Positions 1 through 22,551 of a stretch of DNA of 22,551 nt are shown here, piece by piece (position 1 is the first letter of the stretch; each line of letters opens with the position of its first letter). Below the pieces are notes generated by a model. That model did not search any database. It saw nothing but the letters and a program-made list of their open reading frames with translations, and was not told the origin of the DNA. Source of the DNA: Bilabrum cf. latius (Eukaryota); the NCBI GenBank assembly GCA_965178125.1, contig OZ237749.1:1178001-1200551 (forward strand), written 5' to 3'. Made by a program: the position numbers and the translations under genes.

Positions 1-2679
1 GCTCTGCGTCTAAGGGGTGTCCGGGAGCGGTACTTCCACATCGACGACGCCATGGGCCTCGACGCAGCCGGCAAGGCCTCGGGGGGGCGGGATGCGTCTG
101 CAGCAGCCGCAGGGGGTGGAGGCTTGCGGCCGGCAGGGTATGACACGAAGGATCCGGTGAGCTGCGTCACCGCCAGCAGGTAGTGCATGCTAGTGGGTCG
201 GGCATCAGGCGCGGTGTCAAGGTACACCCTGCCGCACCTGGTGCAGGATGCAGAGTACAGGCTGCGCAAGCCAGCAGCCAGGCTGGCTCTCAACTGCGAC
301 AGTACAGTGTTCAGTGTGGTGGACGACTCGGGCTTCCTGTCTTTCTTCGACACGAGGAGGCACCGGGTGGACCCGTCCACCGGACAGTCCGTGGAAGGCG
401 AGCAGCTCCCCGAGGAGCGCAAGGATGCGTGGGCCATGCGGTGGGCCGAGGACTCCCCGGAGCTGTTCGCGTCGATGGAGAAAACCAAGATGATTGTGTA
501 CAGGGACTGCAAGCCAGGTGACCCGGTGCTGTCCAGCGGCTACCTGGGGCGGTTCAGGGATCTCCGGGTGCAGGTGGCCATGCTGGACGACGTGATGGTG
601 GAGCCGGACCTGGCCAAGGTGAGTGACTGCGTGCTCTTCCACGAGACCAAGTCGCTCGAGGAGGCGTAGGTGCTCATCGAGTCAGCGTCGCCGCAGAAAG
701 CCGTGCAGTACATCCAGGAACATTCGCACCCCAGGCTGTGGCGGCTGCTGGCCGAGGGCGCCCTGGAGCGGCTCGATTTCGCGACTGCAGAGCAGGCCTT
801 TGTGGGCGGGCAAGACTATGCCGGGATCTAGCTCGTGAAGCGGTTGCGGCGGCTAGGTCATAACGCCAAGCAGAAGGCCGAGGTGCACGTGCACTTTGGC
901 AGGTTTCAGGACGCAGAGGACGCCTACCGCGGGATGGACAGGCTGGATCTCGCGATCGAGATGCGGGCCAGGGTGGGTGACTGGGCTCGAGCACTGCAGC
1001 TCGCATCGGAGGGAGAAGCAGACGGGGTGGATCGGATTGTGGCTGAGTGCAGGCGCCGCATAGGGGACCAGCTGATGGACCAGCAGCAGTGGACCAGGGC
1101 CGCGGAGGAGCTGGCCAAGACGGATGACAAAGCTGCGCTCATCAAGTGCTACCGCGCCATGGACGACTTTGACGCGCTGGCCGGCCTCGTGGAGGAACTC
1201 CCGGATGAGTCGCCGCTGCTGGTGGAGCTCGGGAGGGCGCTGCAGTCCGCGGGTGTGGCCCAGCCAGCCGTGGAGGCTCTGCTCAAGGCGGGCTAGCCGC
1301 AGGCAGCCGTGGACTGCTGCGTGCTGCTCAACGAATGGGACAAGGCCATCGAGCTGGCGCAGACGCATGACTTCCCGCAGGTGGAGTCTTTGCTCAACAA
1401 GTACGCCGCCCGGCTCCTGGCCAAGGGTCAGGTGATCGCCGCCATCGAGCTGTACCGCAAGGCTGGCAGACATGCAGAGGCTGCCCACTTGCTAGCCCAG
1501 CTCGCGGAGAGTTCCTTGGCTGCTCGCAAGTCCCCGCTCCGTGCGAAGAAGTTGTTCGTGCTGGCCGCACTGGAGGTGGAGAGCTTCCGGCAGCAGGCGG
1601 CGGACAAGGCCGTCGAGGATGCTACTGCTAAGGGCGGGGGCGCGGTCACTGCGGCAACCGCCACTGCCGCCATGACGGCCACCATGATGGACACCATGCT
1701 GCGGACTAATGCCACGCTCTCGGCGTCCACTGTCGGGGGCGAGCGAGCAGCGAAGCGGGCCGCGCGCACGCTGGACAACGCCTGGCACGGAGCCGAGGCT
1801 CTGCACTTCTGGATGCTTGGGCAGCGGTAGCTGTACGCGCGAGAGTTTGATGCGGCGATGGCGACTGCGGCAAGGCTTGCGGCACTGTACGAGGACGTGC
1901 TCCCTGCGAGGGACGTGCACAGCCTGCTGGCCCTCGCTGCCTTCAGAGCCGGTTTCTTCGGTCTTGCCTCCAGAGCATTCATCCGACTTGAAGCCGTGGC
2001 GGCCGGGGAGGACGAAGCCGCGGACGATGCGGGGGCTGGGGGGGGTGCGAAGGCAATTGGCGGTGCGGCTCACGTGAGCGGCGGCACCGGGGCGGGAGTG
2101 AGCCTGGCCACAGCCGCCACTACCATCATGGGGGGCGCGGAGACCGCCTCTGATCTGGCCGCCGCTCTGGGTGCCATCCCGCTGCCGAGGCCTGCGACTG
2201 CGGGGCTCGGGATGGCCGCGGGGCAGCTGCCCACCGAGGCTGCTCAGGCCATGGAGGCCGGTGGGTTCGGCGCAGGGGCGGCGGGCAAGGGCGGCGTCGG
2301 CTCTGCTGCTTCTCTTGCCCTCCAAGCGGAGCAAGCCAGGAGACAGAAACAAAGGGCCCGCGAGGAGTACGAGCAGCTGGCATTCCAGCTGTTCATGAGA
2401 CACCCCCCTCGCGACCCGCAGACCCGCATGCACCCTTGCCCGCACTGCAAGGAGGGGGTGCAGGGCTGGCAACCCAACTGCTCCTCGTGCGGGGCGCTCT
2501 TCTCGCCCAGCGTGGCATCTGGGCTGCCAATTAGGGGTTAGCCTTACTATCGGTGTGGGAGGTGTAAGCACAAGTGTCTGCTGCATGAAGTGGCTGGACT
2601 TGGGCTCAAGTCTTGCCCGCTCTGCCACGAGCCAATCGACACCGAGCAGGTCGAGCGAAGGTAGAGCCAGGGAACCTGA
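1..2679 (+). CDS. WDR35: IFT-A subunit IFT121/WDR35, 5'-truncated by the window edge (about 892 C-terminal aa; TAG=Gln)
   Basis: Frame +1 is continuous from base 1 to TGA 2677-2679 if TAGs at 181, 667, 829, 1294, 1828, 2539 and 2662 are sense. WDR35 motifs: PELFASMEKTKM, HPRLWRLLAE, AAVDCCVLLNEWDKAIELA, AIELYRKAGRH, LDNAWHGAEALHFWMLGQR*LY, and C-terminal Zn-finger pairs CPHC/CSSC and CGRCKH...CPLCH. Confidence 0.95.
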
Positions 2680-2780
2680 ATCCGCACAATACATATGGTG
2701 GCATCACCGTTCTGAGAAATTTCGTAAGCACTTGCTGGTGTGGCGTAACGCATGGTCAATGCCAAGCACAGGCTGTCCAA

Positions 2781-3255
2781 TCACTTCCCTCGAGCAGCGG
2801 CCGCAGCCTTCCCAGCTCGAGCCTTCTACATCTCGACAACTCTCTCCCCGATCTTATCCTTCTCGGACTTCTTAGCTTCGATACTGTCCTGCATCTGCTT
2901 GATTTGCCTTTCAATTAGGTCAAGACGTCTGCTGACATCCGATTTCCCTTCTTCAACGGGCTGCCGAACAAGCAGCGGGCCGGACAGCTTGAATATGGAC
3001 TCTCCCTCCGCCAACGCCTCAAACTCCTCCTTGACCATAGTGTTCTCATTTCTTCGTGCGTCGAGGTCAGTCATTTGCGAAATGCATTGCTAGATGTCTG
3101 CGATGTCACAGATGAACGTGAAATTACTTGTTACTATACTTGAAGCCCTGAGCTAACACGAATAGAACCAAGCCTAGATCCGTCTCACCAGCTTCAACCT
3201 TCCTATAGCTATTGATTACTTTCGCGAACTCTTCGTCTACGCCTCCTGCCATCAT
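2781..3255 (-). CDS. PFDN6: Prefoldin subunit 6 (beta type, Yke2/PFDN6), 127 aa, exons 3255-3189 and 3097-2781
   Basis: Contains NENTMVKEEF...IFKLSGPLLVRQPVEEGKSDVSRRLDLIE, typical of PFD6. A GT-AG intron joins MMAGG...KVEA to DI*QCISQ. In-frame TAG at 3092-3090 and 2828-2826; stop TGA at 2783-2781. Confidence 0.9.
3098..3188 (-). other. Spliceosomal intron (91 nt) in PFDN6
   Basis: GTGAGA donor and CGCAG acceptor; removal restores the frame. Confidence 0.85.
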
Positions 3256-3562
3256 GCTAGGATTGCAATCCTGTCTGCTGCCGCTGCTGCCTACATTTGA
3301 ACTCCGAACGAGTGTGAATATACACACTACAAACCACAAACAAGACGTGGGCGCGATCCACGGCAGCCGCTTTTACGCACGATTGGCTCAGATTACAGGC
3401 GTATCGGACATCTTAGCCGGGTCTTATCGGTTCAAATTATAAAGATTATTCTACAGCCCCATCACTGATCGGCTAAAGTCAGTAGTATCCGAGTGTTGGA
3501 CTGCTGTTGCCAGCTGGATCCACATCTTTCGCCAACGCAGTAGTATTGGCCAGCGATAAGAC

Positions 3563-5845
3563 ATGCGAACAGTAGCTTCTATTCTTATTGCAACAGTCAG
3601 TTGTCTGGCTGGGTGCAGTGCGTAGTTGTCGGTTCCGCTCAGTGCGTCAGCCGCCGAAGCTGCAACTGCTGCAGCAGTTGGTACATTCGAGGACCCAACC
3701 AGCAACTCCCATGCTCGATTTGCGGCAGCCAAAATCACCTCTATGAGTGAGCAACTCCCAGGCACCTCGGTGCAGTTCCCAAGCGCCAGCAAGGCACGAG
3801 CATGCAAGTCGCTGCAGTCCAGTCAAGGTAGTGATGCTGATATGGCCTTGTCATTCGCTGCGGCTGCTCATCTCGATTGTAAATGGGTATCGAAGCCTTC
3901 CGCTGGCGTAAAGAAGGCAGTCTCCGGTGCGCTTGCCTCAAAATCGGTCCCGTCCATCCTTGCGGCCCTGGAGGCCGCAAAGCACGCACCAAAGCTGCTG
4001 GATGGCAAGCTAGTGGGTGGTAGTAAGAAGGAAGCATCTGACCTCGTGCAGATGCTAATTGACAGCTTTGATGCGTCTGGCGAGTCTGCTTGGGCACCGT
4101 TCAGCTCGGATGACGCGCCTCGTAGCGCCGCCGTGACCTCGATGGCACTGCGCTCCTTGGCTCTAGTCGCTGAGCTGGCGTGTCCCAGCAGCGACGAGGG
4201 CGAGGAATGCCAGTCTATGAGGCAGTCAGTGGTGGAGGCCGGTGCACAAGCTAGTGTTCTGCTGGACAAGGCCGGTGTGGCCGGTCCTGGATCGAGCGGG
4301 GATGTCTCCCTCTCGTTGGAGGTCTCGGACTGGCTGCCCGAGAGGGAGGAGGCTCTCGGGGATGCGATGCTGACCAAACAGGCACGAGCGCAGGTGGAGG
4401 CGTTCTGGGCTACCCACGGCTCCCCAGCCCAGGCCACGGGCCAGCTGGCAAGCGCGCTGATGGACCTGCACGCAGTGACCAGAGCCGACCTTGAGGTGAC
4501 CGCTGACCAGCTGGCGGCCATGGCGCAGGCACTCGTCACACGGGCTCACGAAGCGGCCAGCACAGGAAACGTCGAGCAAGCAGCTGCAGCCCTGGATGGG
4601 CTGGTGGCGCTGTCTCGCCGCAACGTGGTGTCCGTCCCCGTGGCCCTGCAGGTGGTCCCCGCCAAGGGAGACCGCGTGGCTGTGCGGGCGTCCGACCCCC
4701 TGGGTGCGCCTCTGGCCGATGCCAAGGGGTGCGTACTGCGGGCACAGCTCGCCAGACAACTCAGCGGGCCGGAGGAGTCTGACGATCTCAAGATTGATCT
4801 GGAGTTCTCGCTGAGGAAGCCCAAGGCGGGTGCCAAGTCGCAGGACACCGTGTTCGTGGCCAAGGGGGTCTCCGCTGCTCTCTCCGCCCAGGGAGGCACC
4901 TTCGAGCTGGACCTCACTTTCGCCCCCCCGGACAGCCCATCACATGGGCCCCCGCTGCACTCGGTCGAGGCCACCTCCCGCGCCGTGCGGCTGCCCCTCA
5001 AGGCGGCTCTCAAGAACGGCGAGGTTCTCGTGAGCAGCTCGCCAAGGGCCAGCGATGACTCCGCCGTGGTCTCGCGCTCTGACATCGATGCCAAGGGTAG
5101 AGGCGCGGCCACTGTCACGGCGGGCTCGGCGCAGTACGTGCACGTGCTGTTCTCCGTGACGGCCTCGGGCGCCTCCATGCAGCCCCACCAGGCCCTCGTG
5201 CGTCTGACTCCGAGGTCAGGCCCCGGCTCAGCGGCGTTCTTCGTGGCACGGGTCGACTCTGGCGATGAGTCGGAGGGTGGATCGGTCACCATGCGGGCAA
5301 GCATCAACGTAGGCGACCGTCGCGAGCTTGGCGCGGCTGCCGATGGCGGCGCGTTCGATGCTGCCATCGTGATCGGAGACTCTCGCCTCAGCGTCGGCCT
5401 CGAGGTGCCAGTGGGCACGGTGGTGCTGGAGACCCCCTCCCCGCCCCCCGCCCAGGAGGAGATCCTCTACTCCAAGCCGCTGCTGCACGAGAGCGACACC
5501 GCCACGGCCCCTCTGCGGGAGATCGTGCACCAGTTCAATCCCCCGGAGAAACAGCCCCCGATTGTGGTGCCTCTGGCGGTGACGGGGGGCCTAGCTGCCG
5601 TGCTGGCGCTTTTCGTGACCACCGTGGGTGCCCTCAGCCACTCGTGGCGGTCTCCGGGGGCTGCCGGGCTGGGGCTGCTCGCAGTAGTGGGCTCCATGCT
5701 GGCAGTGCTGGGCCTGTACTTCTTCTAGGCTGGCCCTGTGGACAACGCTTTCACCGCGCTAGCCCTGCTGGGCATCCTGTCGGTGCCAGCGCTATTCGTT
5801 GGGAGGTCGGCTCTGGGCGCGCTCGCGGCGCAGGATGCCAAGTGA
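3563..5845 (+). CDS. RPN2: Oligosaccharyltransferase subunit ribophorin II (Swp1/RPN2), 760 aa
   Basis: Signal-peptide-like MRTVASILIATVSCLAGCSA, then TAG 3623. Contains the PHQALVRL motif and EIVHQFNPPEKQPP (RPN2 EIxHxFRxPEKRPP), followed by three hydrophobic segments. The third lies after TAG 5726. Stop TGA 5843-5845. Confidence 0.88.
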
Positions 5846-5987
5846 AGAATATGGTGCTGTCTAGGTGTATCGGTGCATTCAACGAAAATGATGCGGCCCT
5901 GCCAAGGGTAGGACAGCGGGTTTGAGTTGGTATATGGTGGTTGCAATAGTCTAGTCTAGTGCGAGAATGCAACGTCTACGAGGTCTA

Positions 5988-6739
5988 TCAATCCCCCATA
6001 AATATCCTACTCGCGATATCTCCCACCACCCAATCGACTCCTTCCACAAGCCCGTCTCCTGTGTATGCTGAGCACCCCTCGATACTCCAGTGCCTTCCTT
6101 CGTACACTGGGTGCGTTCCAAGTTCGAGAAGCTCAGCGATCTCCTTTGGCGGCAACGCACCTTTGATGTCCTGCTTGTTCGCGAACACTAGCAACGATGC
6201 GCCAGCCAACTTCTCCTGCTGCAGGAGACCGAATAGCTCTTTCTTGCAGTCCAGAAGCCGCTTCTTGTCGGCCGAATCAACTACCCAAACTACCCCGTCC
6301 GTAGACTCGAAATAATTCTTCCAGTATGACCTAATTGTCGTCTGACCGCCAACGTCCCATACATTCAACTTGTACCTGCAAAATTCAACGGGGCAGGCAG
6401 GTACCAAACCGCGCTAGCGGACAGAGTGCAGCACAGAGATTTCGAACGGTCATGAGACTTTCGGATGCCCTCACGACTTGTACTCTAACGTCTTGATATC
6501 AAATCCAAGCGTGGGTGAGATGGTACTGATATCTTCCCCATTAAATTTCCTGAGAACTGTAGATTTTCCAGCGTTGTCAAGTCCCCTGCGAACATTAAGA
6601 TTGCAAGTCGCACCGTTCAAAGGCATAGCATTCGTGACGTGATCCGAGTAGTTCGGACTATACCTCTGGCTCACAGGATGAGAATTCGCATCTCTTTTTC
6701 TTTCTACTTCAACTTCTTCAAGATTGTGAGCAGCCCCAT
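5988..6739 (-). CDS. ARL2: ARF-like GTPase ARL2, 187 aa, exons 6739-6675, 6585-6475 and 6375-5988
   Basis: [64 protein letters not shown] at codon 12 (6706-6704); stop TGA 5990-5988. Confidence 0.96.
6376..6474 (-). other. Spliceosomal intron 2 (99 nt) of ARL2
   Basis: GTGAGG...TGCAG; splicing gives LEYKSYKLNVWD. Confidence 0.9.
6586..6674 (-). other. Spliceosomal intron 1 (89 nt) of ARL2
   Basis: GTGAGC...CGCAG; splicing gives RILILGLDNAGK. Confidence 0.9.
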
Positions 6740-6860
6740 TGCTACGGGAGTATACAAGTCGGGGAGTGAAACTGTTGTGCTACAGTGCAATGCATACAAC
6801 ACTCGTCACACAGTGGTCTCGCTCGATTTCGCGTTTGAAACAAACGATTGCTACAGCTCC
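6740..6860. promoter_or_regulatory. Putative bidirectional promoter between ARL2 and RFC4 (121 bp between start codons)
   Basis: Divergent ATGs at 6739 and 6861. Contains GCTACAGTGCA and CGATTTCGCGTTTGAAA. Confidence 0.55.
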
Positions 6861-8110
6861 ATGGCAGCAACTAGTGGCGCGCTAGGAACTGGCAAGAAAT
6901 CTGCTTCAAAGGTCATTCCTTGGGTAGAGAAATAGTAAGGCGCCAGTTGACAGCACAGTGTGCTATGTTTCTTCTTGGATTCGTAGCTGCCGAACCGTCC
7001 AATTTCCGCTTCGCAGCCGCCCCAAGAAAGTTTCGGAGGTGTCCTTTCAGGATGAAGTTACAAAAGCTCTCGAAAATTCCATCCGAACCGGCGATGTAAG
7101 TACATGGCTGTTGGTGACAGTTTGCCTAGCCTCCAGCGCTACGCTGCACTTGTAGCTTGATCAAAACAGTGTCCTCGCAGTTGCCCCACTTGCTATTTTA
7201 CGGGCCCCCGGGAACAGGTAAAACGAGTGCAGCCAACGCTGTCGCAAGCGAATTGTTTGGGCCGGAGCTGATCAGAGCCAGGAAGCTAGAATTGAATGCG
7301 TCAGATGAGCGAGGAATCTCGGTCGTTCGCGAAAAGATCAAAGCGTTTGCGTCTGGATCAGTTGGATATGGTGCATCCACCTCGGCAGCACCGCGACGAA
7401 GAGTCCCGGCTTTCAAGCTCATCGTCTTGGATGAGGCGGACTCCCTCACCCCGGATGCTCAAGCAGCCTTGCGGCGAACGATGGAGACGTATTCTCACGT
7501 GACGCGGTTCTGCTTGATTTGCAATTATGTGAGCAGAATCATCGAGCCACTGACCAGCCGGTGTGCCAAGTTCCGATTCAAGCCCCTGGACGACGGGAGC
7601 ATGCGAGCGCGGCTCCGGCTCATCGCCGACGCCGAAGGGGTGGCGATGGACGCAGAGGCGGAGGGGGCGCTCCTCTCGTCGAGTGGGGGCGACTTGCGCC
7701 GGGCCATCGCCACCCTCCAGGGCACGGCTTAGATGCACGGCGTTGACGGCGTGTCCAAAGACAGGGTGCTGGCCATGAGCGGGAGACTGCCGGATGCCGT
7801 GTCGAGGCGGTTCTGGGAGGCGGCTCGCGGGGAGGACGTCGCTCGCGTGGTGGCGGTAGCCAAGGAACTGTCCAGCCTGGGCTTTGCTGCATCCGACGTT
7901 CTGGAGCGGCTGTTTGAGGACTCGATCGAGCTTGGCGCCAGCGCCAGCAGCAAGGCCAAGGCTCGCATTGCTAAGTGCCTGGCGGAGAGCCATAAGGCAT
8001 TGCTGGACGGGGCAGATGAGAGCCTGCAGCTGCTGCATGTGGCCATGTCGGTGCAGCGCGCCCTGCACGATTGGGTCATCCCGGATGAGTTCGCTATGCG
8101 GCAACTCTGA
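6861..8110 (+). CDS. RFC4: Replication factor C small subunit (human RFC4 / yeast Rfc2 type), 360 aa, exons 6861-6934, 7017-7095 and 7181-8110
   Basis: [96 protein letters not shown]. In-frame TAG 7730; stop TGA 8108-8110. Confidence 0.93.
6935..7016 (+). other. Spliceosomal intron 1 (82 nt) of RFC4
   Basis: GTAAGG...CGCAG; it splits the TAC codon of PWVEKYRP. Confidence 0.92.
7096..7180 (+). other. Spliceosomal intron 2 (85 nt) of RFC4
   Basis: GTAAGT...CGCAG; splicing gives [11 protein letters not shown]. Confidence 0.92.
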
Positions 8111-8221
8111 TACATGTGCTACTGGATAGAGAGGGGTTAGCCTATGTGCTACTAGATAGAGAATCATCCTAGCCAAGTGGTCAAATCAGGCTAGTGTCCG
8201 TGACATCAACGCAAATCCAAA

Positions 8222-9034
8222 TCACAAACCCGCCTTCCGATTCTGCTCGCGCCTCCTCTCCGCCTCTTCCTTTCGCCGCTTCCGTTCCGCTCTCTTCTTC
8301 TTCCTCTCCACCTCGTCCTGCTTGCGCTTCTCTCGGAGCTCACGAGCCGCTACGTACGACTCTGCCGGGGGAGGCACCCATCCTTCTAATTTGCCCACCC
8401 TTACATACTTGCCCGAGTAGAACTCGACCTGCTCTTCCAGCTCGAGTGTTTCACGGGCCCCGAAATCGCTAAGGTCCGGATTCTCGACGTCATCCTTTTC
8501 TAAAGAACCAGTAGGGAGACTTTTACTGCCATCACGGCCTGCAAATATATGATACGGGGCATCAGGGCCGTAAAAGTGTGCACCCGCCGATACATCGAAC
8601 ACAATGCCGCCGCATGCTAGCAGGATCGGCTTAGTAGGATCCGTCCCGTCATACGCGCGCAACTCCTCCTTAGTGTACTATCGTTCACCGCTAATCTAGA
8701 TGACAAGAAATGACCACATCTGCTGCACCTGTATCCAGCCCATGCCAGCAACACTATCGTCAGGCATGTACGGGCACCCCGTGCGAGCAGTTGAGATCTC
8801 GTGAAAGTTGCCAGCTGGAATCAACAAGGTACTCAAACACCCAATAGACCCTACTATGGCCATGAGCACCCAAACAAAATATGGGAGCCCCTTTCGGCTA
8901 GATTTTGCCTTGCCATGAGGCGCACGCTCTGCTTCTTTCGATTCAACGCCTGTACTAGAGAGCATAGACCTACGTTCCCGCCTATTCCGCACATTACTGT
9001 TATTTTCATCACGTATGCCGGGTTCCGGCTGCAT
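8222..9034 (-). CDS. Membrane-anchored cytochrome b5-like heme/steroid-binding protein (MAPR family), about 270 aa
   Basis: Hydrophobic segment YFVWVLMAIVGSIGCLSTLLIP, then R*YTKEELRAYDGTDPTKPILLACGGIVFDVSAGAHFYGPDAPYHIFAGRDGS...YSGKYVRVGKL. TAGs at 8698-8696 and 8680-8678 link the TM part to the domain. Stop TGA 8224-8222. Confidence 0.88.
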
Positions 9035-9160
9035 CAATGGCGCAGCCTCTTGATTCGTTTCTGCTACACCTCCCGTGCCGTGACGTAGTGCGCTACAGTG
9101 CAGTGATTAGCCGCGATTTCCGTTGAGCCGGCACTTCTGCAGCGATTTAGCCAAGTTCAC

Positions 9161-10419
9161 ATGTCAAGTCGGCGCAAGTGAGTCTTTATTGTGTATGATG
9201 TAAATATATCTTTCTACAGACCCCGGATTATCCTCCTATACTCTATAATTGCCGGCGTAAATTCCGCCTTTATTGCAACCGCAGAGGCATGCCACATAGC
9301 ATCTTGGAGCAACGGGAGAAGGGTTTTGATTTGTCGGGATTATCCTCTGGCAAGTTGGACTACAACCCACTGTACGACTCCAACCTGAGACACTTCTTTG
9401 AGAGTGGTGGAGTGCAAAGGATTCTCAGGAGCACTGGCATGCTAGACTCAGACGGGCGAGTAATAGACATGGACAGGTTCAAAAGCAAGGTAAATATTAT
9501 TGAGCAAGAGTTCAGAACAGTTGAGGCGGAGGAAGAACAGCGTCGTAGGGAGGAAGAGGCGATGCGCAAGCGAGTTAGACAGAGACGCTACGAGGCTCTT
9601 GAAAGGGCTAGATAGCAGGAAAAACTGCAAAAAATGCGGTAGGATAGGAAGATTCGTGCTCAAATTCTCAGAGTAGCGCGGGGTATCGCCCCCGCTGGTC
9701 CCCCAGCTGGCGCAAAGAGAACATCAGGTCGATCAGTGCTTGCGCACAGCGCAAGCGCTGGCGTCCTAGGCAGCCGACCTGGCATGGGTGGGTCCCATGC
9801 TGCAGCCGCTGGCCTATATGGACAAGGTGGCGGCGCGAGGCGCAAAGTCAAGCGCAAAGGCAAGAAGAAGAGGGCTGCCGCGAGACAAGAAGCAGCCGGG
9901 TTTGCATCGAACTCCCCCCCCTTCGCTGCTGACGTCCATCGCACTCACGTGCCGGCAAGAGCTCCCGACGAGAGCAGGTTTCGCGATCCTATGGCACATG
10001 ATGAGTATGACCGTGGAGCTGTGGTAGAGCTTCCCAGGGAGGCTGGTGCGGCGGAAGAGCCGGCTAGCTCTGCCCCACTGGCACCACCACGCGCTACCTC
10101 TGAGCGGGCGGCGAGCCAGGCCTAGGCAGGAGGGGCTAGCTAGGCCTACTAGGCAGGAGGGGCGTACGACTATATTGATGTGCTCGCCCAAGAGGCCCGC
10201 AAAGACGCCGAGCGCATGGCGGAGTCTGCTAGAAGCCTTGGGGGCGGCACCGGCGGAGCCTCGGGGGCTGGGACGGCCAGATCTATGCGGTCTGCTGGGC
10301 TAGGTGACATTGCCGGTGCAGTTGCACCCGGCACAGCTGGGAGCGCAGACGTTGTCGTGACCGATGCAGACGGGTTTGCCATCCCTCCGGCCACAGATGC
10401 GGATGGCTTCAATTTGTGA
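9161..10419 (+). CDS. Uncharacterised protein with an ERICH3-N-like motif, coiled coil and low-complexity tail, about 383 aa, exons 9161-9177 and 9285-10419
   Basis: YNPLYDSNLRHFF...ILRSTGMLDSDGRVID resembles the YNSLxDxHLxxYF...L...G.I...GR motif I recall from ERICH3-type ciliary proteins. Frame is continuous over TAGs at 9613, 9640, 10123, 10141 and 10150; stop TGA 10417-10419. The first exon is inferred; ATG 9289 is an alternative start. Confidence 0.7.
9178..9284 (+). other. Predicted spliceosomal intron (107 nt)
   Basis: GTGAGT...CGCAG; joins MSSRRK to GMPHS in frame. Confidence 0.65.
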
Positions 10420-10476
10420 ATGATCCCATGCGAAACTAGATAGTATGTTGTGCACTATGTGAATGATACAGTCGCG

Positions 10477-13400
10477 TCACCTCCGCTTGCCCCGCATCTC
10501 CTTGGAGCGGTGCCTCTTCATGCCCTCCTGGTGCTGCTTGCGGGATGCCTGCTTTTTCGCATGAGCACGCCGCAAACCTGCCTCATCCAGCGCCAGCCCG
10601 TTCCCCTGCTCCCGGCGACTGCCTGCCCCCTTCCCGGAGCCGCCCCTGCCTTGTCCACTAGCGCGCCCTGCACCGGCACTCGGCCGGCGCTGCGAAATAT
10701 CGCCAGCCCGTGCGGCTAGCGGGATGGCGCGGCTCCTGCCCTTGCCCTTCTGCCTCCAGTCCATCTTTGGAGCAGCACCAACAGCCGCGGCATCATCATC
10801 ACCATCCCCCCGGGCCCTGTTGGTCGCGTCCCCGATGCTCCGCTTGGTGTCCTTGGTCCACCGACGATACAGCTCGCCGTGCTCCTTACCATCCGACCGC
10901 ACCACGGCGCCGCTCTCTGTTCTCAATCGCTTGTCGCCTCGGCGGTCTGCTGCCTCCCCGTCTGTAAGTCTCACGTACTTGCGCTTGCGCTTGTCCCAGT
11001 GCAGTCGCTGCTACTGCGCCGCCATATCTTTCTGGTCATCAGCAACCACATCCACGACAGAGCTCTCCAGACGGGTGAAGCCCTCGATACCCGAAGCAGC
11101 CCCTCCCCTCGTTGCAGTCTCGCTGTTCGCCACCCTGTGCACCTGCATCGCGCTGGCCTCCCGGCGCTCCTCCGCGCTGGGGCCTTGCTGCACGAACAGA
11201 GCCGGGTCCCGGAATGCGCCAGTGGCCAGATCGATGTTGGAGGCGCCAACCCCGGCCTACTCCAAGTGCATGGCAGCCTCCAATGCAGCGCGCCGCCTAG
11301 CTGCTTTGGATCCTTTGCCGGCGCCGCGGTCAGCTCGCTTCATTGAACGCAGATGGACAGATGAGCGGCTTGCGCCCTTGCTTACCCGCGATGTTTCCCC
11401 AGCTGAGGAGCCGTTTTCATCGTCCGAGGCGCTACTGTCCTCCGACTCCGGACTCTTCTTCTTTGCAGCCGCCATCCTCTCCGCCGTCCTCTCTTTTTTC
11501 CTGGCAGCTGCGAGCGCCTCGCCCTTGCCCCACAAATCCTGCCGGGTCGTGTGCCTCCGCCGAGCAGCCTCCATGATTGCAGCCCCATGGTCTCGCTTCA
11601 CCTTGCTGCCGTCCGTCTCCAATATGGTCTGCTTGGGACGAAAGGCACGCAAAGACTCGATCGTCACTTGGTCCGCTCCTGCTGCAAGCCCTGCCGCAGA
11701 AGATGAGGAGGAGGAGGCTGGCTAGTCAGCATCCCCCCTACCGGACAGAATATCGTCCGCGACCGCCTGAGCAAGCCGACGAGCATGCGCACCGACAGCC
11801 TCGGCCTTGCCCCTCCGGCGGCCGCTGCTCTTGGACTTCACTGGGGCAGGTGCCGCCCCTTGCGCCAGAAGCAGAGGGTGCTCCGTGGCAAAAATGCGCC
11901 GCTCCAACCGCCGCACCTCGGCTGCTCCTCGCCGCGTTGCCTCCCTGCAAGCGCGCCTGTAGGCCTGCATGCCTCGTGCCGCTGTCTTGAGCTGGGACCG
12001 CATTGTATCGCTGTGCTTGAGGGCCTGTTCTTGTTCCTCCAGCAAAGCAGCGCGCACCGGTGCTGGCACCCCGCCCACATGCACGTCGAGCGGCGTCATC
12101 GTTGCAATATTGTACTGCAGCTGCCTCTAGCCACTGCCAGCTGTGTCAGCTGAGTCGGTCAACCGCGCCACGGACACATCCTCTGTTGCGGCACCCGAAC
12201 TAGCTACCTCTGCCTGCTCCGCTGGCTCTACTTCTTGGCTGCCCGGTAGTGGCAGCAAAATATCATCCAGGTCGTGCCCTAGAAAAGCGGCGCAATCGGC
12301 CAAGTACGGCGCGTCAGCCGGTGAGACGAACTATATGGCAGTTCCTGACCTGCCTTGTCTGGCGACTCGACCGCACCTGTGCACAAACAGCTTGGGCTGG
12401 TCCGGCATGTCGAACTGCACCACGTTGTCCAGCAGAGGGAGGTCGACGCCTCGGGCTGCCACGTCTGTTACAATCATCACACGAGCCTGCTTTCTCCGGA
12501 ACACCTCCATGTGCGCTCGTCGCGCGGCAGCATCCATCGAGCCAAAGATGGCGATGACACCGCCGGTGCCCGTGGAGGCAGTGCGCACGTCCTCTTCCTG
12601 CAGTGCGCGAGTCTCGCGGGCCGCGTCTGCAGCTGCGCGGTTGCGGTACTTTCCCGCCGCGCTGCCGCCAGGCTTGGCCCCTTTGGCAGCCCCTCCGGCC
12701 CCTGCACCCGAGCCGGCTGCCCGGACGCAGTCGTTCGGGACAGAGCAGGCCCGCAGGAACTGGAGGAGGAGCTCAGCCTGGTGCTTAGTAGCAACGAAAA
12801 CCATGGCCTGCTGGTCGGTAGGAATCACAGCACGCAGCACATACAGCAATAACCCCAACTTTGCATGAGTTTGCACTCCGAAGAAAGCGAGTCGGAGCTA
12901 GTCGCTGATCTTGGACTCGGCGTCGAGGCGAATCATAGCCGGGTCTCGGAGCCCAGCGCGAGCGAACTCTGCTACTCTGCGAGGCAGCGTCGCGGAGAAC
13001 AACAGCGTCTATCTGGCAGGCGACACCCTGGCCAGGATCTCCCGGAGCTGGTCGGCAAACCCCTGCTCAAACAGTCGGTCTGCTTCGTCGAACACGAGGT
13101 ACTCGACTGCGTTCAGGCTAAACTCATCCTTGGGAATTTCTGCCAATAAGTGCATAAGTCGGCCCGGGGTACTGACAACTAGATCGGGCGCAGTTGCCAA
13201 AGCTTCAAACTGAGCTGTCATGGAGTCTCCGCCTACCAGCAGGGCGCACCGGCAAGAAGCAAACCTACCCAGCTACAGAGCAAATTTCATCGTCTGTTGG
13301 GCAAGCTCCCTAGTTGGGGAAAGAACCAATACCCTAGGCCATTTCAAATTGCTTCCGCGTTGCTCAACTGACTTTCCTCCCTCGGTTGCCGCTGAGGACT

Positions 13401-13845
13401 TTTGCCGCAGCCCCTTGGTGCCAGCGAGAATACGCTGCAAGCCAGGCAACAAAAATGCAGCTGACTTGCCTGATCCAGTTCTTGCCATTGCTACGATATC
13501 CTTTCCAGATAACGAAATTGGAAGTGTTTGTGCCTAGATCTGCGTAGGCTCGTTGTACTTCAACTGCTTAATGCCTTTCAGCAGCAGAGAATCTAGCCCG
13601 AAACTCGACCATATCTCTTTTCTCTACCTCTTCTTAGCTTTTTTTGAGGTCTAGTCTGGGTTGCCTTCTTCTACTGGCACAGTTTGTACCTGTCCCGCTG
13701 GTTTGGAAAGCACGCTTGCGGCTGCCGAATTTGCCCTTGCACCTGACACCACCGCATTGCTCGTTGCTTTTGCAGTCAAAGATGATTGCGCCTGCTAGAG
13801 CTCTCTCTCGAAGTCTACTTCTGCGAGTCCCGCAGCCAGATCCAT
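10477..13845 (-). CDS. DDX54: DEAD-box RNA helicase DDX54/Dbp10, about 1122 aa, apparently intronless
   Basis: Q motif [81 protein letters not shown], and the Dbp10 C-terminus WDKRKRKYV...RTESG...GELYRRW. Twelve in-frame TAGs (plus-strand CTA at 13795, 13651, 13624, 13534, 13273, 13009, 12898, 12331, 12127, 11722, 11257, 11011); stop TGA 10479-10477. Confidence 0.95.
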
Positions 13846-14144
13846 CTAGAATTCTGTTCCTACTCAATGCTTTGGTGAAACTGCAAGTGCAGTAATTTGT
13901 TGCCCACCGGAACGAACGTTCTCTTGCTTGACGTGGCAATATTTGTTGTGCCCAAATACGGTAATAATTCTTTTATTAGATGATATCGTATATAGTTCAC
14001 AGTTCAACTCCACTTCGGCGGAGGCTTTCCGGCTAGCTCCTCTCATGCCTTTTACCTGAGAGGAACACGGTTTGCCTCGTTACGCTAACGATATGAAAAT
14101 TTTGGACACTTCTCTTCGGAGACCCGTTTCTCGTGAATTTAGAT

Positions 14145-16856
14145 TCAAGTCGGTGGAGACCACTTCCGCATTTCCTTTTGGACGGTCGCTGCGTACCGCT
14201 CCGGCGAGAAGCTTGTGCGTAGGTCAGGCAGCGGCGCTGGTGGCATGGCCGGTATGCCTTCCAAATGCTCGGCCTGTGCCTCTGACCTCTCGCGAACTCC
14301 ATGTGCAACGCCAAGAATAGATGCACCACTAGCTGGTCCTCTCGTAGCCACCAGCCGCCCGGTACTTGTCCCAATGCCTTCCAATGCAGGTGTACCTGCC
14401 AGTGCAGCTGCCGCTGCAACTCTCTCGTTGGACCGGGCCACTGCCTGCATCAAGTCGATCTCCACTGCTTTAAATCTACTTTGACTGCCCACTTCATAAT
14501 TACCGGCAGCTATAACTCCACCAACACTCTCTACGCCCACACGCGCACCTTGATGACGTGCGCCGCCACGCCTAATGTCCGCAGCCTGGACTGGTGCCAT
14601 GTCCGCAGAGGCCACACCCTGGACTGGTGCCATGTCCGCAGAGGCCACACCCTGGACTGGTGCCATGTCCGCAGAGGCCACACCCTGGACTGGTGCCATG
14701 TCCGCAGAGGCCACCTCCTGGACTGGTGCCATGTCCGCAGAGGCCACACTCTGGACTGGTGCCATGCCCGCAGAGGCCACACTCTGGACTGGTGCCATGT
14801 CCGCAGAGGCCACACCCTGGACTGGTGCCATGTCCGCAGAGGCCACCTCCTGGACCGGTGCCATGCCCGCAGAGGCCACACCCTGGACTGGTGCCATGTC
14901 CGCAGAGGCCACCTCATGGACTGGTGCCATGCCCGCAGAGGCCACCTCCTGGACTGGTGCCATGCCCGCAGAGGCCACACTCTGGACTGGTGCCATGTCC
15001 GCAGAGGCCACACTCTGGACTGGTGCCATGTCCGCAGAGGCCACACCCTGAACTGGTGCCATGCCCGCAGAGGCCGCACTCTGGACTGGTGCCATGTCCG
15101 CAGAGGCCACACCCTGGACTGGTGCCATGTCCGCAGAGGCCACACCCTGGACTGGTGCCATGTCCGCAGAGGCCACCTCTTGGACTGGTGCCATGTCCGC
15201 AGAGGCCACACCCTGGACTGGTGCCACGCCAACTGATTCAATTATTACTGGAGACCACTGAGTGCGCTGACGCAGATTCTAGCCTACTTTACTACTGAAT
15301 CGAGGCGTATGGTCCATTCCTCTCTCCGATTGCAGGTGCGTGTGCTGCACCGGAGGGGTGTGCTTCCAAGAGCTGCCAGAGCAGAAAGCTGGGGAGACAG
15401 TCTCTCGACCAGAGCCCAGCCGTGCGCGAGCATCATTCCCCTGCTAATCATGCAGTGGCCCAATAGAGTTGCCGACGACAACCCCCAGGCGAGCCAGTCG
15501 TCGACGCAACCGTGCCACCGTTATCTCAGGGTCCTCTACCTTAATCGCCTCCAATGTGGGGTACATGCTAGCGGATCCAACTCCAATCATGTTCTCTAGT
15601 TCCGGTGCAGCTTTGCTTGACGATGAATCTGAGGCACTACCCCGACCTGCCGTCAGGTACTACACAGTCTCAAGCGGCTATATATCTACAGGATGCATGC
15701 GGCGATCCTAGTCCAACCTTAATTGCTGCGCTAGTTGATCAGCAGGACTTGGTTGCAACGATGTGCATGCAGCAGATACGGCCGTCAGCCTCATGCTGGT
15801 TGCCGCCGGGGCAACACCCGTGTCCGTCCTACGCTTGGGTGTGCCTGTTTCGGAAAGCAGATGGCCACGAGTTGCGCCCGAATCTGTTTCTCGCATGGCG
15901 GAGAGATTTCTAGCATCACTATTGGTGGCCTTACCTCTCAGAGCCACATCAATAATGTCGTGCTTTGCGGTCATGCCTCCCACCGCTGTCGCAACCGCCG
16001 CATCACGAGGCTCACACATTCCAGGCAGGATTGACTACGGACTGTGCACCGGGCTGTGCATGCCACCCCTTTCTTCTTGAGATCCCACCCTATCTGGAAC
16101 ATAGGATTTGGTGGCTTCGTCATATCTGAACTTGGCTCTCGTTCTTCGCACTTCCGACCTGGATAGGGGCAGAGCTGGTACCACTGGGGTAGGATCCTAG
16201 CACCCACGCGAGCGAGCCGCTTCATCATCACAAACTATATCACCGTGACGACGGCTGTGTTGTACTTCAATTTCCGCATGGCTCTCCTGCTTGCCAGGAG
16301 GTCCACCCCCACATGATTCGGGCACTGCTGCTTCGGACTACCGTGTCAGCGCATCTGCTCCAACTATGGATGTGTGCGGCAATGAACTATCAGTTCGCAC
16401 TATCGATGCAAGGTCTCCAAGTAACTTTCGAGCTGTTCGAGGTGATGCCGACTGCAAGATGGCACCAAGAGCGTCGCCGCGGTCCCTGCTAAAGAATGAA
16501 GTTGCTGAATGGCTACTGCGCGCCGAATCCACGGAAGTTAATCCATCCACATAATCAATACGCGCGCGATCCTGTTGTCCAGAGCTTGATTCTATTTCAA
16601 GAGACGGTTTGCGGGACGATGCTGGCGGGGACGAAGATCGACGAGGGTAGCCCGGACTAGCATGAACCCTGCTGTCTTCCCCGACTCTGTCTTCACGCTT
16701 CGATGGTGGTGCCCTTCTGCGTGGGAAAGACTGTTTGAATCTGGGAATCGAGGTCCCACGCTATATGCCGCGACATGCACACCAATATTATTAGCACAAA
16801 AATCATCGAACTCACAAAAATCGCTATCTGTAGTACTCCAAATCAATTGACGCCAT
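14145..16856 (-). CDS. Orphan low-complexity protein with an 11-aa tandem repeat, about 878 aa, exons 16856-16816 and 16740-14145
   Basis: One minus-strand frame has no TAA/TGA from 16787 to TGA 14147-14145. The spliced model has 9 in-frame TAGs. The first exon MASIDLEYYR*RF is joined by a GTGAGT...CCCAG intron. No recognisable domain. Confidence 0.7.
14586..15227. repeat. Coding minisatellite, 33-bp unit, 19 full copies plus a partial, encoding MAPVQ(G/E/S)VASA(D/G) on the minus strand
   Basis: Head-to-tail copies of CTGGACTGGTGCCATGTCCGCAGAGGCCACACC with point variants and no indels. Confidence 0.97.
16741..16815 (-). other. Predicted spliceosomal intron (75 nt)
   Basis: GTGAGT donor and CCCAG acceptor in compatible phase; it supplies the ATG missing from the long frame. 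Confidence 0.6.
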
Positions 16857-17008
16857 GCTATGCTTTAGTCGACAAATTGTGTGGATATTATATCTATACG
16901 GTACCTCTCAATGACCTACTCGACGACCTTTCGTTTCGAATTGCATTATGAGGATCGAACCTTCGCTGGCCTGGCGGTGGATTCGGTTCATTTAATCACT
17001 GTGCTGCG

Positions 17009-20000
17009 ATGGCAACAACGTCTGGATTCGATCCAGCATTCGCTCATCTTGCTAAGATTGGTGCTGATCTCCGCGGTACATCGAGTCAATCAAGACCACG
17101 AGCAGATCAGCTAGGAACCGCGATATAGTGCTTACCAGCCTGTCTGCATCTTTTTGCGGTTGCCCTGCTTGACTAGACCCGCGCTGGTCCCAGTAAAGGT
17201 GCTTATCATATGGATATGATATGCCAGCAAGTTTCAGACTATGTCATTTCGGCTTTGCAAACGACAGACACACGCTGTCCAACGTGGTGCATAGATTGTT
17301 TTGGGAATTGCTCCACGCTTCTTCTCGCCGTTGACTAGGCCTGGAGGGACCCCAGCATACTTTCAGCTGTGCTATGCTTTCGGGTTGCCCAGAAGTTGGT
17401 TCGGACACCGGGCGTTGAAGTCGTCCATGTGGCGGAAGGTATCGCAGGAATAGCGTTGATGCGGACCCGCGACTTGATGCATGATATCGTTGATTTCAGT
17501 CCTGCATACTGTGATGGCACCAGTCATAAAAAGCGCCCAGAGTCTAGCAGGCGATAGTCGGACCTTGGTCCTTTGAGCGCAAAGATTGGACGGAGTAGCT
17601 TAGGCGAGCCCCTCGACCCCAGTCACCTGCCGGTGGCAGCCAGCCGAGGGCGATCGGTTCCACAGTCAACTGTGTCTGGCTTTCATGGAGCTAGTCCTAC
17701 CACAGGGATTCGAGTCCAGCGAGCACTTTCTGAGCCCCTGGAGACCTTCAGGCCTGAGCGCGTGGGTGCAGGAGCTCCCAGCAGTGGTCGCAGCTTCGAT
17801 CGAACGCAGCACCTATCCAGGGCGGCATCAAGAGAGGCAGCCGGAGGCACCATGCCGACATCTCGATCGAAGCTGGACAGGGTGTCAGACATGAGTAGTA
17901 CTGACTCCGCTGGCGTAGTTCACGCATGGGTCGCTCGATGCGGCTACGCGAGGGCCGCAGTGGCTCGAGTCTTAGTGTGCTTGGAACAAGCTGACCTGCC
18001 AGGTTCGTGGGTATCAAGGTGTGCGACAGCAGCGCGAAAGAGCTGGCCGAGACTGCCAGTGTGTGCCAACGCGCGGCTAGTGGCATGTGCAATTGCAGTA
18101 GCCAGCCCAGGTGTGCTGGATCTCTTGCATTGGCAGCAGACTGTTGCAGCAGAGACTCTGAGCCGCGCGCAGCGTGCTTCCCCAAGGTCTGGAATTCATG
18201 AGAGGGTTGCTCGACCTCTAGACCGAGCCCGGCCAATCCTTGGACTGCTGCAAGAATCTTCGAGATTCGTCGCTACACGATGCGACGCGGCTGAGGTTTC
18301 GTATTTGTGGGGATTGCGGCCGCCTGCCACTGTCAATAGCAAATCTAGCTCATATGGCGCAGCCACGGGAGCGGCTTCACCGGGACAAGGGCCTCTATAG
18401 AGCTTGTTTCGGCCATTGACCATCTCTCTAGCGTCCAGGCTTTTATTGGTAACGTCATCGGGTGAGGTTGAGAGCGTTGCTATCGCCCTTCTCGAAGGTG
18501 GAATCCTTGTGTTCGGCACGGAGCAGGGACACCGCGCCCCAAGCTAGCTGTGGACGCCTGCACCGCGCCCTACACTTGCATCTAAACTGAATAGGCGACC
18601 AGTTCAAACACATGGGGTTGGCACCGCATCAGATTCCTGGATCAAGAATGCAGATATAGCCGGGCGAGTCGCATTCAACTCATCGCTAGCAAGCATCTCG
18701 ATGCTAGACGGTCGTCCCGAAAACCCTGACAAAGATGGGTGGGCAGTCCACTTTCAAGCCGAGGACTGCCAAGCCATGGCTCTTGAGCCTTCAGCAAATC
18801 AGGGTTCGGCGAGGACATAGTTCAGTTCGTGGGGCATCATTGGTGGCAACAGCATAGGGCTCGTAGCGTGCTCAGCTCCAGAGAAAACGGCTGCGTTAGA
18901 GCTGTCAAAGCTTTTGCCTGATAGAGCCAGTACTCCCATCATATGCTAGGGTGTTGAGCGAAGCATGATTCTGCTGTGCCGTGGGCAAGCTGAGGCAAAC
19001 AGCTGGAGCCTGGCAATCAAAGCCGAAATGGTGGGAGCGTGTGCTGCTGGCACCAAGTTGCCTCTACCAGCTCCAATATTGGTGCCACGTGCTTTATGGC
19101 CTCTTCGGTCTGTGCTACTCCCCGGCATTGATAAAGTTTCGGCGTAGCGTGAGTCGGCTGTGGAACCAATGCCGCCGGCTGACGCAAACGTGTTCGCGTG
19201 CGATCTGTGCGGTCGGCTAGCGCCTGGACATGGAGCGCCACCCCACGTCCCTATGCTGCTAATTCCCGACCACACGACGAATGCCTGGCCATGCAGCTGC
19301 TGCACGCAGTGTTTAAGCAGGATGGCTCTGGAGGATGACTGTGACGAGGACGTCGGCGCTCGTGACTTCGGTGCCAGGCTAGTCCTGTTGCAGAATAGAG
19401 TTGGGAGCAACCATTGCCCCTCCCGGTGCCGATTCGCGGCCTCAATGGCCTTTGGGGTGTCGAGAGACTAGGCGACTGCGTGGCTTGATGAGGCTGAACG
19501 TACTGTGATTTCCAGTGGTGCACGCGGCTAGGCTGTTCCCTCGCCACCGGGCAACTCATTGGCTCGGGCGGTGCTGTACACTATATCGTGTGGGTTACGT
19601 GTACGATTAAAAAGCGATGCGACCGTGGTGGAGCTGCATAGGCCTGATTTAGCATCCACTGACAGCCCTGCAGACACCACGTCATCAGAGCCGCAAGGTC
19701 TATCCAGCTCCGATGAGGTTCATTGGAAGAAGTGGTTTATGCCAGGTCCTGACCGCCATGCGTTTCTTCAGGGCGAGCTACGACGAGGGGCGCGCCGTTA
19801 TTGTCTGCTGGAGGAAGCCCTGTGCCTGAGGCTTCGTGCAGTTCGTTTGGATCCTTCCGTGCAGATTAGCAAGCTTGCGCTGGAGCAGCTCAGTACTCTG
19901 TGGAGACGAACTGGTCTACTCCGTGGCGATTTTGAGGCTGCAGGGCCTGCGAGACCAGTTGCAGACGACGCCGCTCATCTCAAAATACCTGCCAGTGCCA

Positions 20001-20839
20001 ACACCCCGAATGGATAGCACAGCTCTGCATCTGCCCCACAATCGAACCACCTTCATGTGCTGCGTTGGCGGTACGATTCGTACAATCGTGTTACTCGCAA
20101 GCGCGTGTGTCTAGCACCGGGCACGAGGGTCCATGTGGTGGAGCCACATCGCACGGCAGCTCTAGTAGCACAAGGCAGGGTACCTGCGTGCCCGGACCCC
20201 ATGAGCATTGAGAGCTATGTCCTCGTTTCTGTCGCACAAATGCGCGGCGTCCATGCTGCCAGCAGCTATCATGCAGCACCAGCCAGTACTACAAGCTTGA
20301 CTATTGGCCTTCACGAAGTTAGGCCGCTGGGGCCTGGCAGGGTGGAAGTACGCGATGCTAGCATAACCGAAGAAAGCCCTTCTGGAGCAGGTTCGATGCT
20401 AGCAAATCCCAGCCTCGTACGACGGCAACAAGCAGGACACTCAGGTGGCGATGCTAAGCTTGTCGATGCAGAACTGGTTTGGGTACCTCTTGACTTTTTG
20501 CGATCCCAGGGATCCAGTCTCGCAGTTAGTCCTGCTGATCTATCAGGTCTCGGATGGGATGCCTCTGCCCAGTTTGCAGCCTATGAACAGTCTGGAGTTG
20601 CCACGTACACTGCCACGGATTGGGGCTAGGACGAAAGGGCGAGTAACACATCAACCCAGGCAGGGCGCAGCCTGGAAGTACCAATTCAGGAAGGCAAGTC
20701 AGCCACGACATTTGCATCGGCAACCCCAGTACCTAGCACAGATGAGGATGATTCAGAATCACCTGACCTGGACCACAAAGGAGATGCAGTCGACTTCGAC
20801 TTGGCTAGGGGGTCGGCAGCAGCGTTTGAATGGGATTGA
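17009..20839 (+). CDS. Large orphan protein, 1276 aa; possibly a highly diverged DH-PH-Zn-finger-SH3 (RhoGEF-like) protein
   Basis: Frame +2 runs from ATG 17009 to TGA 20837-20839, interrupted only by 13 TAGs (17126, 17174, 17336, 17555, 18398, 18545, 18818, 18947, 19145, 19469, 19529, 20015, 20627). Six ORF-track fragments share this frame. Domain resemblance is weak and judged by eye. Confidence 0.75.
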
Positions 20840-20926
20840 CTTCAGAAGGTTGAACAAGTCCTTACGGAGCATCTGCTTTCACTTCAACCCTTTACTTTGC
20901 CATTGTCTACCTGTAGTCCGGTGCGA

Positions 20927-21906: not shown

Positions 21907-22551
21907 TTAGGGTTAGGGTTAGGGTTAGGGTTAGGGTTAGGGTTAGGGTTAGGGTTAGGGTTAGGGTTAGGGTTAGGGTTAGGGTTAGGGTTAGGGTTAG
22001 GGTTAGGGTTAGGGTTAGGGTTAGGGTTAGGGTTAGGGTTAGGGTTAGGGTTAGGGTTAGGGTTAGGGTTAGGGTTAGGGTTAGGGTTAGGGTTAGGGTT
22101 AGGGTTAGGGTTAGGGTTAGGGTTAGGGTTAGGGTTAGGGTTAGGGTTAGGGTTAGGGTTAGGGTTAGGGTTAGGGTTAGGGTTAGGGTTAGGGTTAGGG
22201 TTAGGGTTAGGGTTAGGGTTAGGGTTAGGGTTAGGGTTAGGGTTAGGGTTAGGGTTAGGGTTAGGGTTAGGGTTAGGGTTAGGGTTAGGGTTAGGGTTAG
22301 GGTTAGGGTTAGGGTTAGGGTTAGGGTTAGGGTTAGGGTTAGGGTTAGGGTTAGGGTTAGGGTTAGGGTTAGGGTTAGGGTTAGGGTTAGGGTTAGGGTT
22401 AGGGTTAGGGTTAGGGTTAGGGTTAGGGTTAGGGTTAGGGTTAGGGTTAGGGTTAGGGTTAGGGTTAGGGTTAGGGTTAGGGTTAGGGTTAGGGTTAGGG
22501 TTAGGATTAGGGTTAGGGTTAGGGTTAGGGTTAGGGTTAGGGTTAGGGTTA
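21907..22551 (+). repeat. Telomere (TTAGGG)n, about 107 units
   Basis: TTAGGG array to the end of the window, G-rich strand running 5'->3' toward the end. One TTAGGA variant at 22501-22506. Confidence 0.99.

Follow-up and report, generated by a model that had tools for sequence, protein, structure and literature searches.

The DNA analysed here, hereafter the window, is a stretch of 22,551 bases with a G+C content of 54-66% (contig OZ237749.1, positions 1,178,001 to 1,200,551 of the forward strand, filed under Bilabrum cf. latius). It carries ten gene models distributed over both strands, and in every one of them the reading frame passes through TAG triplets that, to judge from alignments and transcripts, are very probably translated as glutamine by the nuclear code of this organism (Table 1). 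The genes are followed by a subtelomeric array and telomeric repeats that continue up to the last base, which identifies the window as a chromosome end. No Pfam family was found for g9161, g14145 or g17009. Six introns of 82 to 107 bases occur in four of the ten genes (ARL2 and RFC have two each, the prefoldin gene and g9161 one each), and all six are backed by spliced contigs and have GT..AG borders on the gene's own strand.

Table 1. Genes and repeats of the window, with the evidence for each. X5, X7 and X8 are public sequencing runs.
Feature	Position	Strand	Structure	In-frame TAG	Stop	Basis
IFT121/WDR35, 5' end cut by window	1-2679	+	892 codons	7	TGA	Pfam WDR35, IFT121 TPR and zinc-finger families
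Prefoldin subunit	2781-3255	-	exons 2781-3097, 3189-3255; intron 3098-3188, GT..AG on minus strand	2	TGA	Pfam Prefoldin_2, E 2.9e-13; joint 3097>3189 in X5, X7, X8
Ribophorin II (RPN2)	3563-5845	+	760 codons	2	TGA	Pfam Ribophorin_II third and C-terminal domains
ARL2	5988-6739	-	exons 5988-6375, 6475-6585, 6675-6739	1 (6704-6706)	TGA	Pfam Arf, E 2e-42; joints 6373>6473 and 6584>6674 in X5, X7, X8
RFC small subunit (RFC2/4 type)	6861-8110	+	exons 6861-6934, 7017-7095, 7181-8110	1 (7730-7732)	TGA	Pfam AAA and Rep_fac_C; GT..AG joints 6934>7017 (X5) and 7095>7181 (X5, X8)
Cytochrome b5-like haem/steroid-binding domain protein	8222-9034	-	270 codons	2	TGA	Pfam Cyt-b5
g9161	9161-10419	+	exons 9161-9177 (tentative start), 9285-10419; poly(A) site near 10452	5	TGA	joint 9177>9285, GT..AG, in X5 and X7
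DDX54/DBP10 DEAD-box helicase	10477-13845	-	1122 codons	12	TGA	Pfam DEAD, Helicase_C, DBP10CT
g14145	14145-16787	-	open frame of 880 codons (638 from first ATG)	9 (6 from ATG)	TGA	open reading frame lists
g17009	17009-20839	+	1276 codons	13	TGA	open reading frame list
Subtelomeric tandem array	20917-21906	.	63-base unit, 15.7 copies			Tandem Repeats Finder and sequence
Telomere	21907-22551	+	TTAGGG x 107.5, reaches last base of window			Tandem Repeats Finder and sequence

TAG as an in-frame codon

Among the 6257 codons of the ten gene models, on both strands, 54 are TAG and none is TAA or TGA. This recount agrees with an earlier, sequence-only reading of the same DNA, which had reported 54 TAGs over about 6,260 codons in ten genes. 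Taken together with the standard glutamine codons, the codons read as glutamine number 283 (165 CAG, 64 CAA and 54 TAG). When these coding sequences are read in frames +1 and +2, their 12514 triplets include 143 TAG, 51 TAA and 234 TGA, so that TAG is about as common in frame (0.86%) as out of frame (1.14%). At the out-of-frame rate about 25 TAA and about 117 TGA would be expected in frame, where neither is seen. In-frame TAG near its out-of-frame level, while TAA and TGA are strictly excluded, makes a pattern beyond chance.

The lengths of the open frames respond to the code in the same selective way. The longest frames from stop to stop measure 700, 403 and 386 codons when the standard code is applied, and 1295, 1128, 892, 880 and 761 codons when TAG is taken as sense. 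Treating TAA as sense brings no gain in frame length, and treating TGA as sense gives longer frames with a maximum still at 700 codons. In seven of the ten genes Pfam families extend across the TAGs, in line with the earlier statement that homology continues in frame past them; the accompanying statement that no frameshifts are needed also stands, with the addition of the six short introns. The base that follows an in-frame TAG is C in 17 cases, G in 15, A in 12 and T in 10, without strong bias.

Transcripts retain the TAG codons

Four public runs from three studies (X5 to X8) were compared with positions 1-14500 of the window in the form of Logan contigs; runs carrying this DNA date from 2019 to 2025. 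No run is labelled RNA on record, and RNA status was judged from spliced joints. Contigs of X5, X7 and X8 skip GT..AG introns, and an X7 contig overhangs position 10452, 33 bases past the TGA of g9161, by nine A, which together mark the contigs of these three runs as spliced, polyadenylated transcripts. X6 represents the unspliced DNA form, with a single contig over 2725-10787.

The listed pieces of these transcripts cover most of the 32 TAG codons in 1-14500 (31 in X5, 26 in X7 and 13 in X8), and none of the covered codons is altered. One X5 contig spans the whole DDX54 gene (10452-13863) with no differences and no gaps, and the X5 contig over IFT121/WDR35 spans 1-2696, likewise without a difference. 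Across the 14.5 kb and all four runs, the sole departure from the window is a G>T change at 9485 in X8, so the organisms behind the runs are almost the same strain. Because the TAGs are unchanged in spliced contigs, the major RNA form is neither edited to CAG nor spliced so as to avoid them. Retention of UAG in mRNA, which the sequence-only reading had proposed to confirm from RNA, is thereby borne out, with no CAG in place of any covered TAG in X5, X7 or X8; splicing across the TAGs, which it had named as grounds for abandoning the claim, is not what the contigs show, as all six introns lie away from them.

Two odd joints were also recorded. One, 12220>7934, appears in X5 and X8, two runs of one study, with 27 foreign letters between its sides; the other, 5052>7943, appears in a low-depth DNA contig of X6. 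Chimeric assembly, or a match to another locus, is the probable source of both.

Deep homologues at TAG positions

The residue encoded by UAG was sought in protein alignments in which each TAG of the query was masked as X. DDX54 was aligned to 120 listed of 5094 matches, and IFT121 to 148 homologues (150 listed of 2125 matches, minus the entries P0135 and P0254, two near-relatives). The two proteins supply 19 TAGs, 13 of which fall in columns that are at least half occupied, and Q is the commonest residue in four of these 13. Residues 104 and 279 of DDX54 are Q in 120/120 listed homologues each; the former is presumably the Q motif and the latter precedes TLLFSAT. Among the listed homologues of IFT121, Q occupies residue 277 in 84/137 and residue 610 in 78/126 occupied rows. 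The single TAG of ARL2 lies in the N-terminal part; also entered as X, it falls opposite Q in each of the three solved ARL2 sequences. Both DDX54 residues, residue 610 of IFT121 and the ARL2 site are the four positions that the sequence-only reading had given as glutamine in family members, and all four hold.

Summed over the 13 columns, the log-odds reach +1.2 bits for Q, followed by -17.9 for K, -19.6 for E and -20.6 for R. Profile alignments favouring a residue other than glutamine had been named in advance as a reason to drop the claim; the alignments of these two proteins favour glutamine, by 19 bits. This test is free of the weakness that mutational nearness brings to pairs of orthologues.

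Orthologues and near-identical strains

A scan with an IFT121 fragment found a metagenome contig of 9849 bases, L001, that is collinear with positions 171-9692 of the window at 67-74% nucleotide identity, except for a 51-base segment at 88%. The L001 orthologue of IFT121 needs 16 in-frame TAGs to give an open frame, and the other L001 frames are alike. Over 838 codons, the two IFT121 genes are identical at 0.85, 0.93 and 0.43 of codon positions 1, 2 and 3, respectively, which indicates that both copies are under purifying selection. TAG is an ordinary in-frame codon of expressed genes held under such selection.

Codon pairs were drawn from protein-guided alignments of five genes, keeping columns with at least four identical residues among the eight flanking. 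Fifteen columns were excluded from this five-gene tally, five in which the TAG faces a gap and ten that are poorly aligned (three of the ten with a Gln-codon partner). In the retained columns, window TAGs are partnered in L001 by CAG (4), CAA (3), TAG (3), GCT (1) and AAG (1), and L001 TAGs are partnered in the window by CAG (10), CAA (3), TAG (3), GAG (1) and AAG (1). Glutamine codons are the partner in 20 of the 24 informative pairs. The ARL2 and prefoldin genes, aligned without the flank filter, add seven Gln codons in seven pairs, for a total of 27/31. Within ARL2, L001 TAGs stand at the Gln of DVGGQ and at the Gln of NKQD, which are taken to be the G3 and G4 motifs of the Arf family. When the partners are scored with substitution frequencies estimated from these alignments, Gln has a log10 likelihood of -10.2, with Thr (-36.9) and Glu (-37.6) next. 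Among relatives, TAG is freely interchangeable with CAG and CAA.

Near-identical strains give the same residue. P0135 differs by one change from residues 63-276 of the window IFT121 and has Q at residue 223, a window TAG; homologues mostly have R or K there, yet the sister strain uses a standard Gln codon. P0277, which is 98% identical to an exon of RFC, also has Q at the window TAG. P0135 begins two residues past one window TAG and halts just ahead of another, as expected from a gene caller that applies the standard code; it and P0254 are both database entries consisting of fragments with ends near TAG sites.

Roles of UAA and UGA

UGA is a working terminator: TGA ends all ten window genes and all six L001 genes, and none occurs in frame. 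The six L001 ends belong to orthologues of window genes, and the 16 ends are therefore not all independent.

UAA is not a sense codon. The A-ending member takes 27% of CAR, 28% of GAR and 27% of AAR codons, and if UAA were also read as Gln about 20 in-frame TAAs would be expected; none is seen in 6257 codons. The L001 orthologue frames, delimited by TAA and TGA, contain no interrupting TAA and run the full orthologue length. The deficit of TAA points to a code in which UAG alone is reassigned and not to one of the NCBI table 6 type. If TAA took 27% of gene ends, the chance of finding none would be roughly 0.04 (10 ends) to 0.007 (16 ends). The sequence-only reading had described the code as table 15-type, which is upheld for UAG as Gln and for UAA as a codon without sense; the stop role that such a code gives to UAA finds no example at the 16 ends. 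A stricter version, in which UAG means glutamine, UGA is the sole working terminator and UAA would be neither sense nor stop in two or more species of a lineage related to Cafeteria, is a tentative proposal and rather unlikely.

Decoding and alternative explanations

In the available parts of one report, other eukaryotes that decode UAG are described as having a tRNA-Gln(CUA), derived from tRNA-Gln(CUG), together with an altered eRF1 (PMC5304391). By analogy, a tRNA-Gln(CUA), separated from tRNA-Gln(CUG) by a single change in the anticodon, would pair here with UAG and not with UAA, the glutaminyl-tRNA synthetase would accept it as a substrate, and an altered eRF1 would no longer release the peptide at UAG.

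Several observations count against translation of UAG as glutamine or limit the case for it. The tRNA scans found no tRNA gene in the window or in L001-L005, and neither eRF1 nor the glutaminyl-tRNA synthetase is encoded in these sequences; the window also has no Rfam match at gathering threshold. TAG and CAG differ by one transition, and this mutational nearness could inflate the count of orthologue pairs. Logan contigs drop rare variants, which leaves room for minor RNA forms. TAA terminates none of the 16 genes, and a stop role for UAA is thus assumed. Four of the 31 orthologue partners are not Gln codons (AAG twice, GAG and GCT), and in nine of the 13 well-occupied deep columns the commonest residue is another one (A, A, E, D, S and K in DDX54; K, R and D in IFT121). 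A majority of other residues at these nine columns is nevertheless expected of an ordinary Gln codon, since at the query's own CAG and CAA codons Q is commonest in only 13/67 columns.

The non-glutamine partners and columns are also what could be cited in favour of a different amino acid (Glu, Lys, Leu, Tyr or Ser, as in other reassigned lineages): the four discordant pairs are Lys, Glu or Ala codons, and several deep columns are mostly E, D, K/R or S. Such an assignment is hardly credible when glutamine leads by about 27 log10 units in the orthologue-pair likelihood and by 19 bits in the deep-column log-odds, with two DDX54 columns invariant for Q and Q at TAG sites in two near-identical strains. 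The idea that the TAGs reflect artefact or decay, be it through errors of sequencing or assembly, through pseudogenes, through editing of UAG to CAG in the RNA or through splicing that avoids the codons, is just as difficult to credit. No point in its support was found; the same TAGs recur in contigs from four runs and three studies, spliced transcripts keep them while removing six real introns elsewhere, and the genes evolve under purifying selection between two species, the second of which uses TAG likewise.

Alternatives that concern the other stop codons draw mainly on the gene ends. If UAA and UAG both meant Gln (NCBI table 6), UGA would be the sole stop and TAA merely rare in a GC-rich genome, and the 16 TGA ends out of 16, with no TAA among them, match the UGA-only termination of table 6 organisms. 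The TAA triplet is, however, not rare in this DNA, with 51 in the other two frames; in frame it is missing against 54 TAGs and an expectation of about 20, and the L001 frames bounded by TAA and TGA match the full length of their orthologues. A table 6 code is accordingly very improbable. It is also possible to suppose that UAG is ambiguous, being sense inside genes and a context-dependent terminator at some ends, as in Condylostoma or Blastocrithidia. Only 16 gene ends are available, and the L001 orthologue of RPN2 ends at 5657-5662 with GGC TAG TGA, where the TAG is either the last sense codon or the true end. Set against this, none of the ten window genes ends in TAG, five of the six L001 frames run past every TAG to the orthologous TGA, and the base after TAG has no strong bias, all of which makes a dual role exceedingly improbable. 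Translation of UAG as glutamine, with UAA out of the sense repertoire, is the reading that best accounts for these data.

Placement of the organism

The best named matches of RFC, DDX54 and IFT121 are 42-55% identical and come from stramenopiles, green algae, plants and animals alike. A ranking with such low identity and such mixed taxa does not place the organism, and the option of naming it from these matches was rejected. Trees were computed for IFT121 (32 rows, LG+C20, quick search) and DDX54 (30 rows, quick search), both from samples that contained no ciliates, fungi or metamonads. For IFT121, the window and L001 lie inside a stramenopile clade of 20 rows (SH-aLRT 99), with Cafeteria roenbergensis and two environmental proteins as their sister (SH-aLRT 99), and the DDX54 tree gives the same position (SH-aLRT 98). 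These are single-gene trees in which the window rows have long branches, and the window, L001, Cafeteria and several environmental rows have an unusual amino-acid make-up in common that can pull them together. As far as the two trees go, the organism is a stramenopile and sister to the Cafeteria clade, and to that same extent they support the earlier suggestion that it is not a ciliate and that its code had an independent origin. It is a small, seemingly free-living flagellate, GC-rich, compact and poor in introns, with TTAGGG telomeres, and its DNA occurs in public runs under several organism labels. An aphelid origin was also considered, Amoeboaphelidium being a parasite of algae known to read UAR as Gln; it is rejected in view of the stramenopile position in both trees, which contained no fungal rows, and of the lack of TAA sense codons, and no fungal row occurs among 79 IFT121 matches.

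Cafeteria roenbergensis and its environmental relatives resemble the window in their GC-rich composition. The IFT121 and DDX54 homologues of this clade are uninterrupted proteins of 1059 to 1480 residues that are 42-54% identical to those of the window, which implies that the two genes have no in-frame TAG there. The reassignment would then have taken place after the split from the Cafeteria clade and before the window organism and L001 diverged. The two Cafeteria roenbergensis genes (P0448 and P0075) carry the tags FNF29_01012 and FNF29_01020 on one contig of 960,280 bases. The interval between these tags nearly equals the span of eight genes seen in the window, a hint that the gene order is conserved in Cafeteria. 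A similar pointer to gene order is that P0429 (IFT121) and P0292 (RFC) both have a longest contig of 62,133 bases.

The P0121 cluster, an IFT121 homologue 48-49% identical to that of the window, sits among stramenopile and environmental rows in the IFT121 tree. One of its members is filed as Symbiodinium sp. KB8 on a contig of 4187 bases, and this record may stem from contamination of the dinoflagellate assembly.

Gene spacing and repeats

Convergent neighbours almost touch at 5845-5988, 8110-8222 and 10419-10479, and the poly(A) site of g9161 is 25 bases from the stop codon of DDX54. One transcript contig spans both RPN2 and ARL2, and another both RFC and the cytochrome b5 gene. Together, the near-touching convergent genes and the contigs that span two genes indicate 3' untranslated regions that are tiny or overlap. 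Within g14145, a tandem repeat with a unit of 33 bases (19.5 copies, 14585-15226) codes for an 11-residue repeat. The copies of the 63-base subtelomeric array have 98% matches, and the array directly abuts the telomere, in which one deviant unit, TTAGGA, occurs near 22503.

Relation to known codes and significance

Reassignment of UAG alone to Gln is described, in the available parts of the literature cited, for Iotanema spirale (Fornicata), Protocruzia tuzeti and two lineages of phyllopharyngean ciliates (PMC11687900; PMC5304391). Both UAR codons are given as Gln (NCBI table 6) in many ciliates, some ulvophyte algae, hexamitin diplomonads, Streblomastix and Amoeboaphelidium protococcarum (PMC11687900; PMC5304391). 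The sections available further list UAG and UAA with different meanings in Iotanema, Protocruzia, two phyllopharyngean lineages, one rhizarian and Scotinosphaera (PMC11687900), and UAA as the dominant stop in Iotanema and the rhizarian exLh (PMC5304391).

On these partial accounts, the window organism resembles Iotanema spirale in that UAG alone is reassigned, to Gln, that UAA is not sense, and that a tRNA-Gln(CUA) and an altered eRF1 are to be expected. They differ in that UAA is the main terminator of Iotanema spirale (PMC5304391), whereas TGA takes 16/16 ends here and TAA none. Iotanema spirale is moreover a member of Fornicata, a lineage unrelated to the stramenopiles with which the window organism groups. 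Protocruzia tuzeti and the phyllopharyngean ciliates, as far as the same accounts describe them, share with the window both the codon and its new meaning. In contrast to those ciliates, the window shows a chromosome end that carries multiple genes and TTAGGG repeats, and its organism appears as a stramenopile in trees without ciliate rows. Ciliate telomeres have repeats different from TTAGGG. The lineages with table 6, again on what is available of their descriptions, are similar in the change of a stop codon to Gln and in the use of UGA as a working terminator, and differ in that TAA is also sense there; the window has no in-frame TAA beside 54 TAGs.

Searches of the open full-text literature, which leaves subscription journals mostly outside along with supplements, found no report of a nuclear stop-codon reassignment in a bicosoecid, a bigyran or any other stramenopile; a description of this code may exist elsewhere. 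UAG-to-Gln is therefore a known kind of code that is probably found here in a new, independent lineage. Nuclear code changes are very rare outside ciliates, and split meanings of UAG and UAA are rarer still. A further origin would supply an independent replicate for the question of how a stop codon gets captured, and this one comes with a sister clade that has no in-frame TAG in the two genes compared. There is also a practical consequence, as gene callers that apply the standard code shatter the genes of this organism, so that its proteins are largely missing or broken in public sets.

That TAA is absent both within genes and at their ends is relevant to the coupling of UAA and UAG, which still lacks an explanation. 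If UAA were indeed out of use in this lineage, its code would stand as a natural intermediate on the way from the standard code to those in which UAR is Gln, and the disuse of UAA would open a direct view of why UAA and UAG usually change together.

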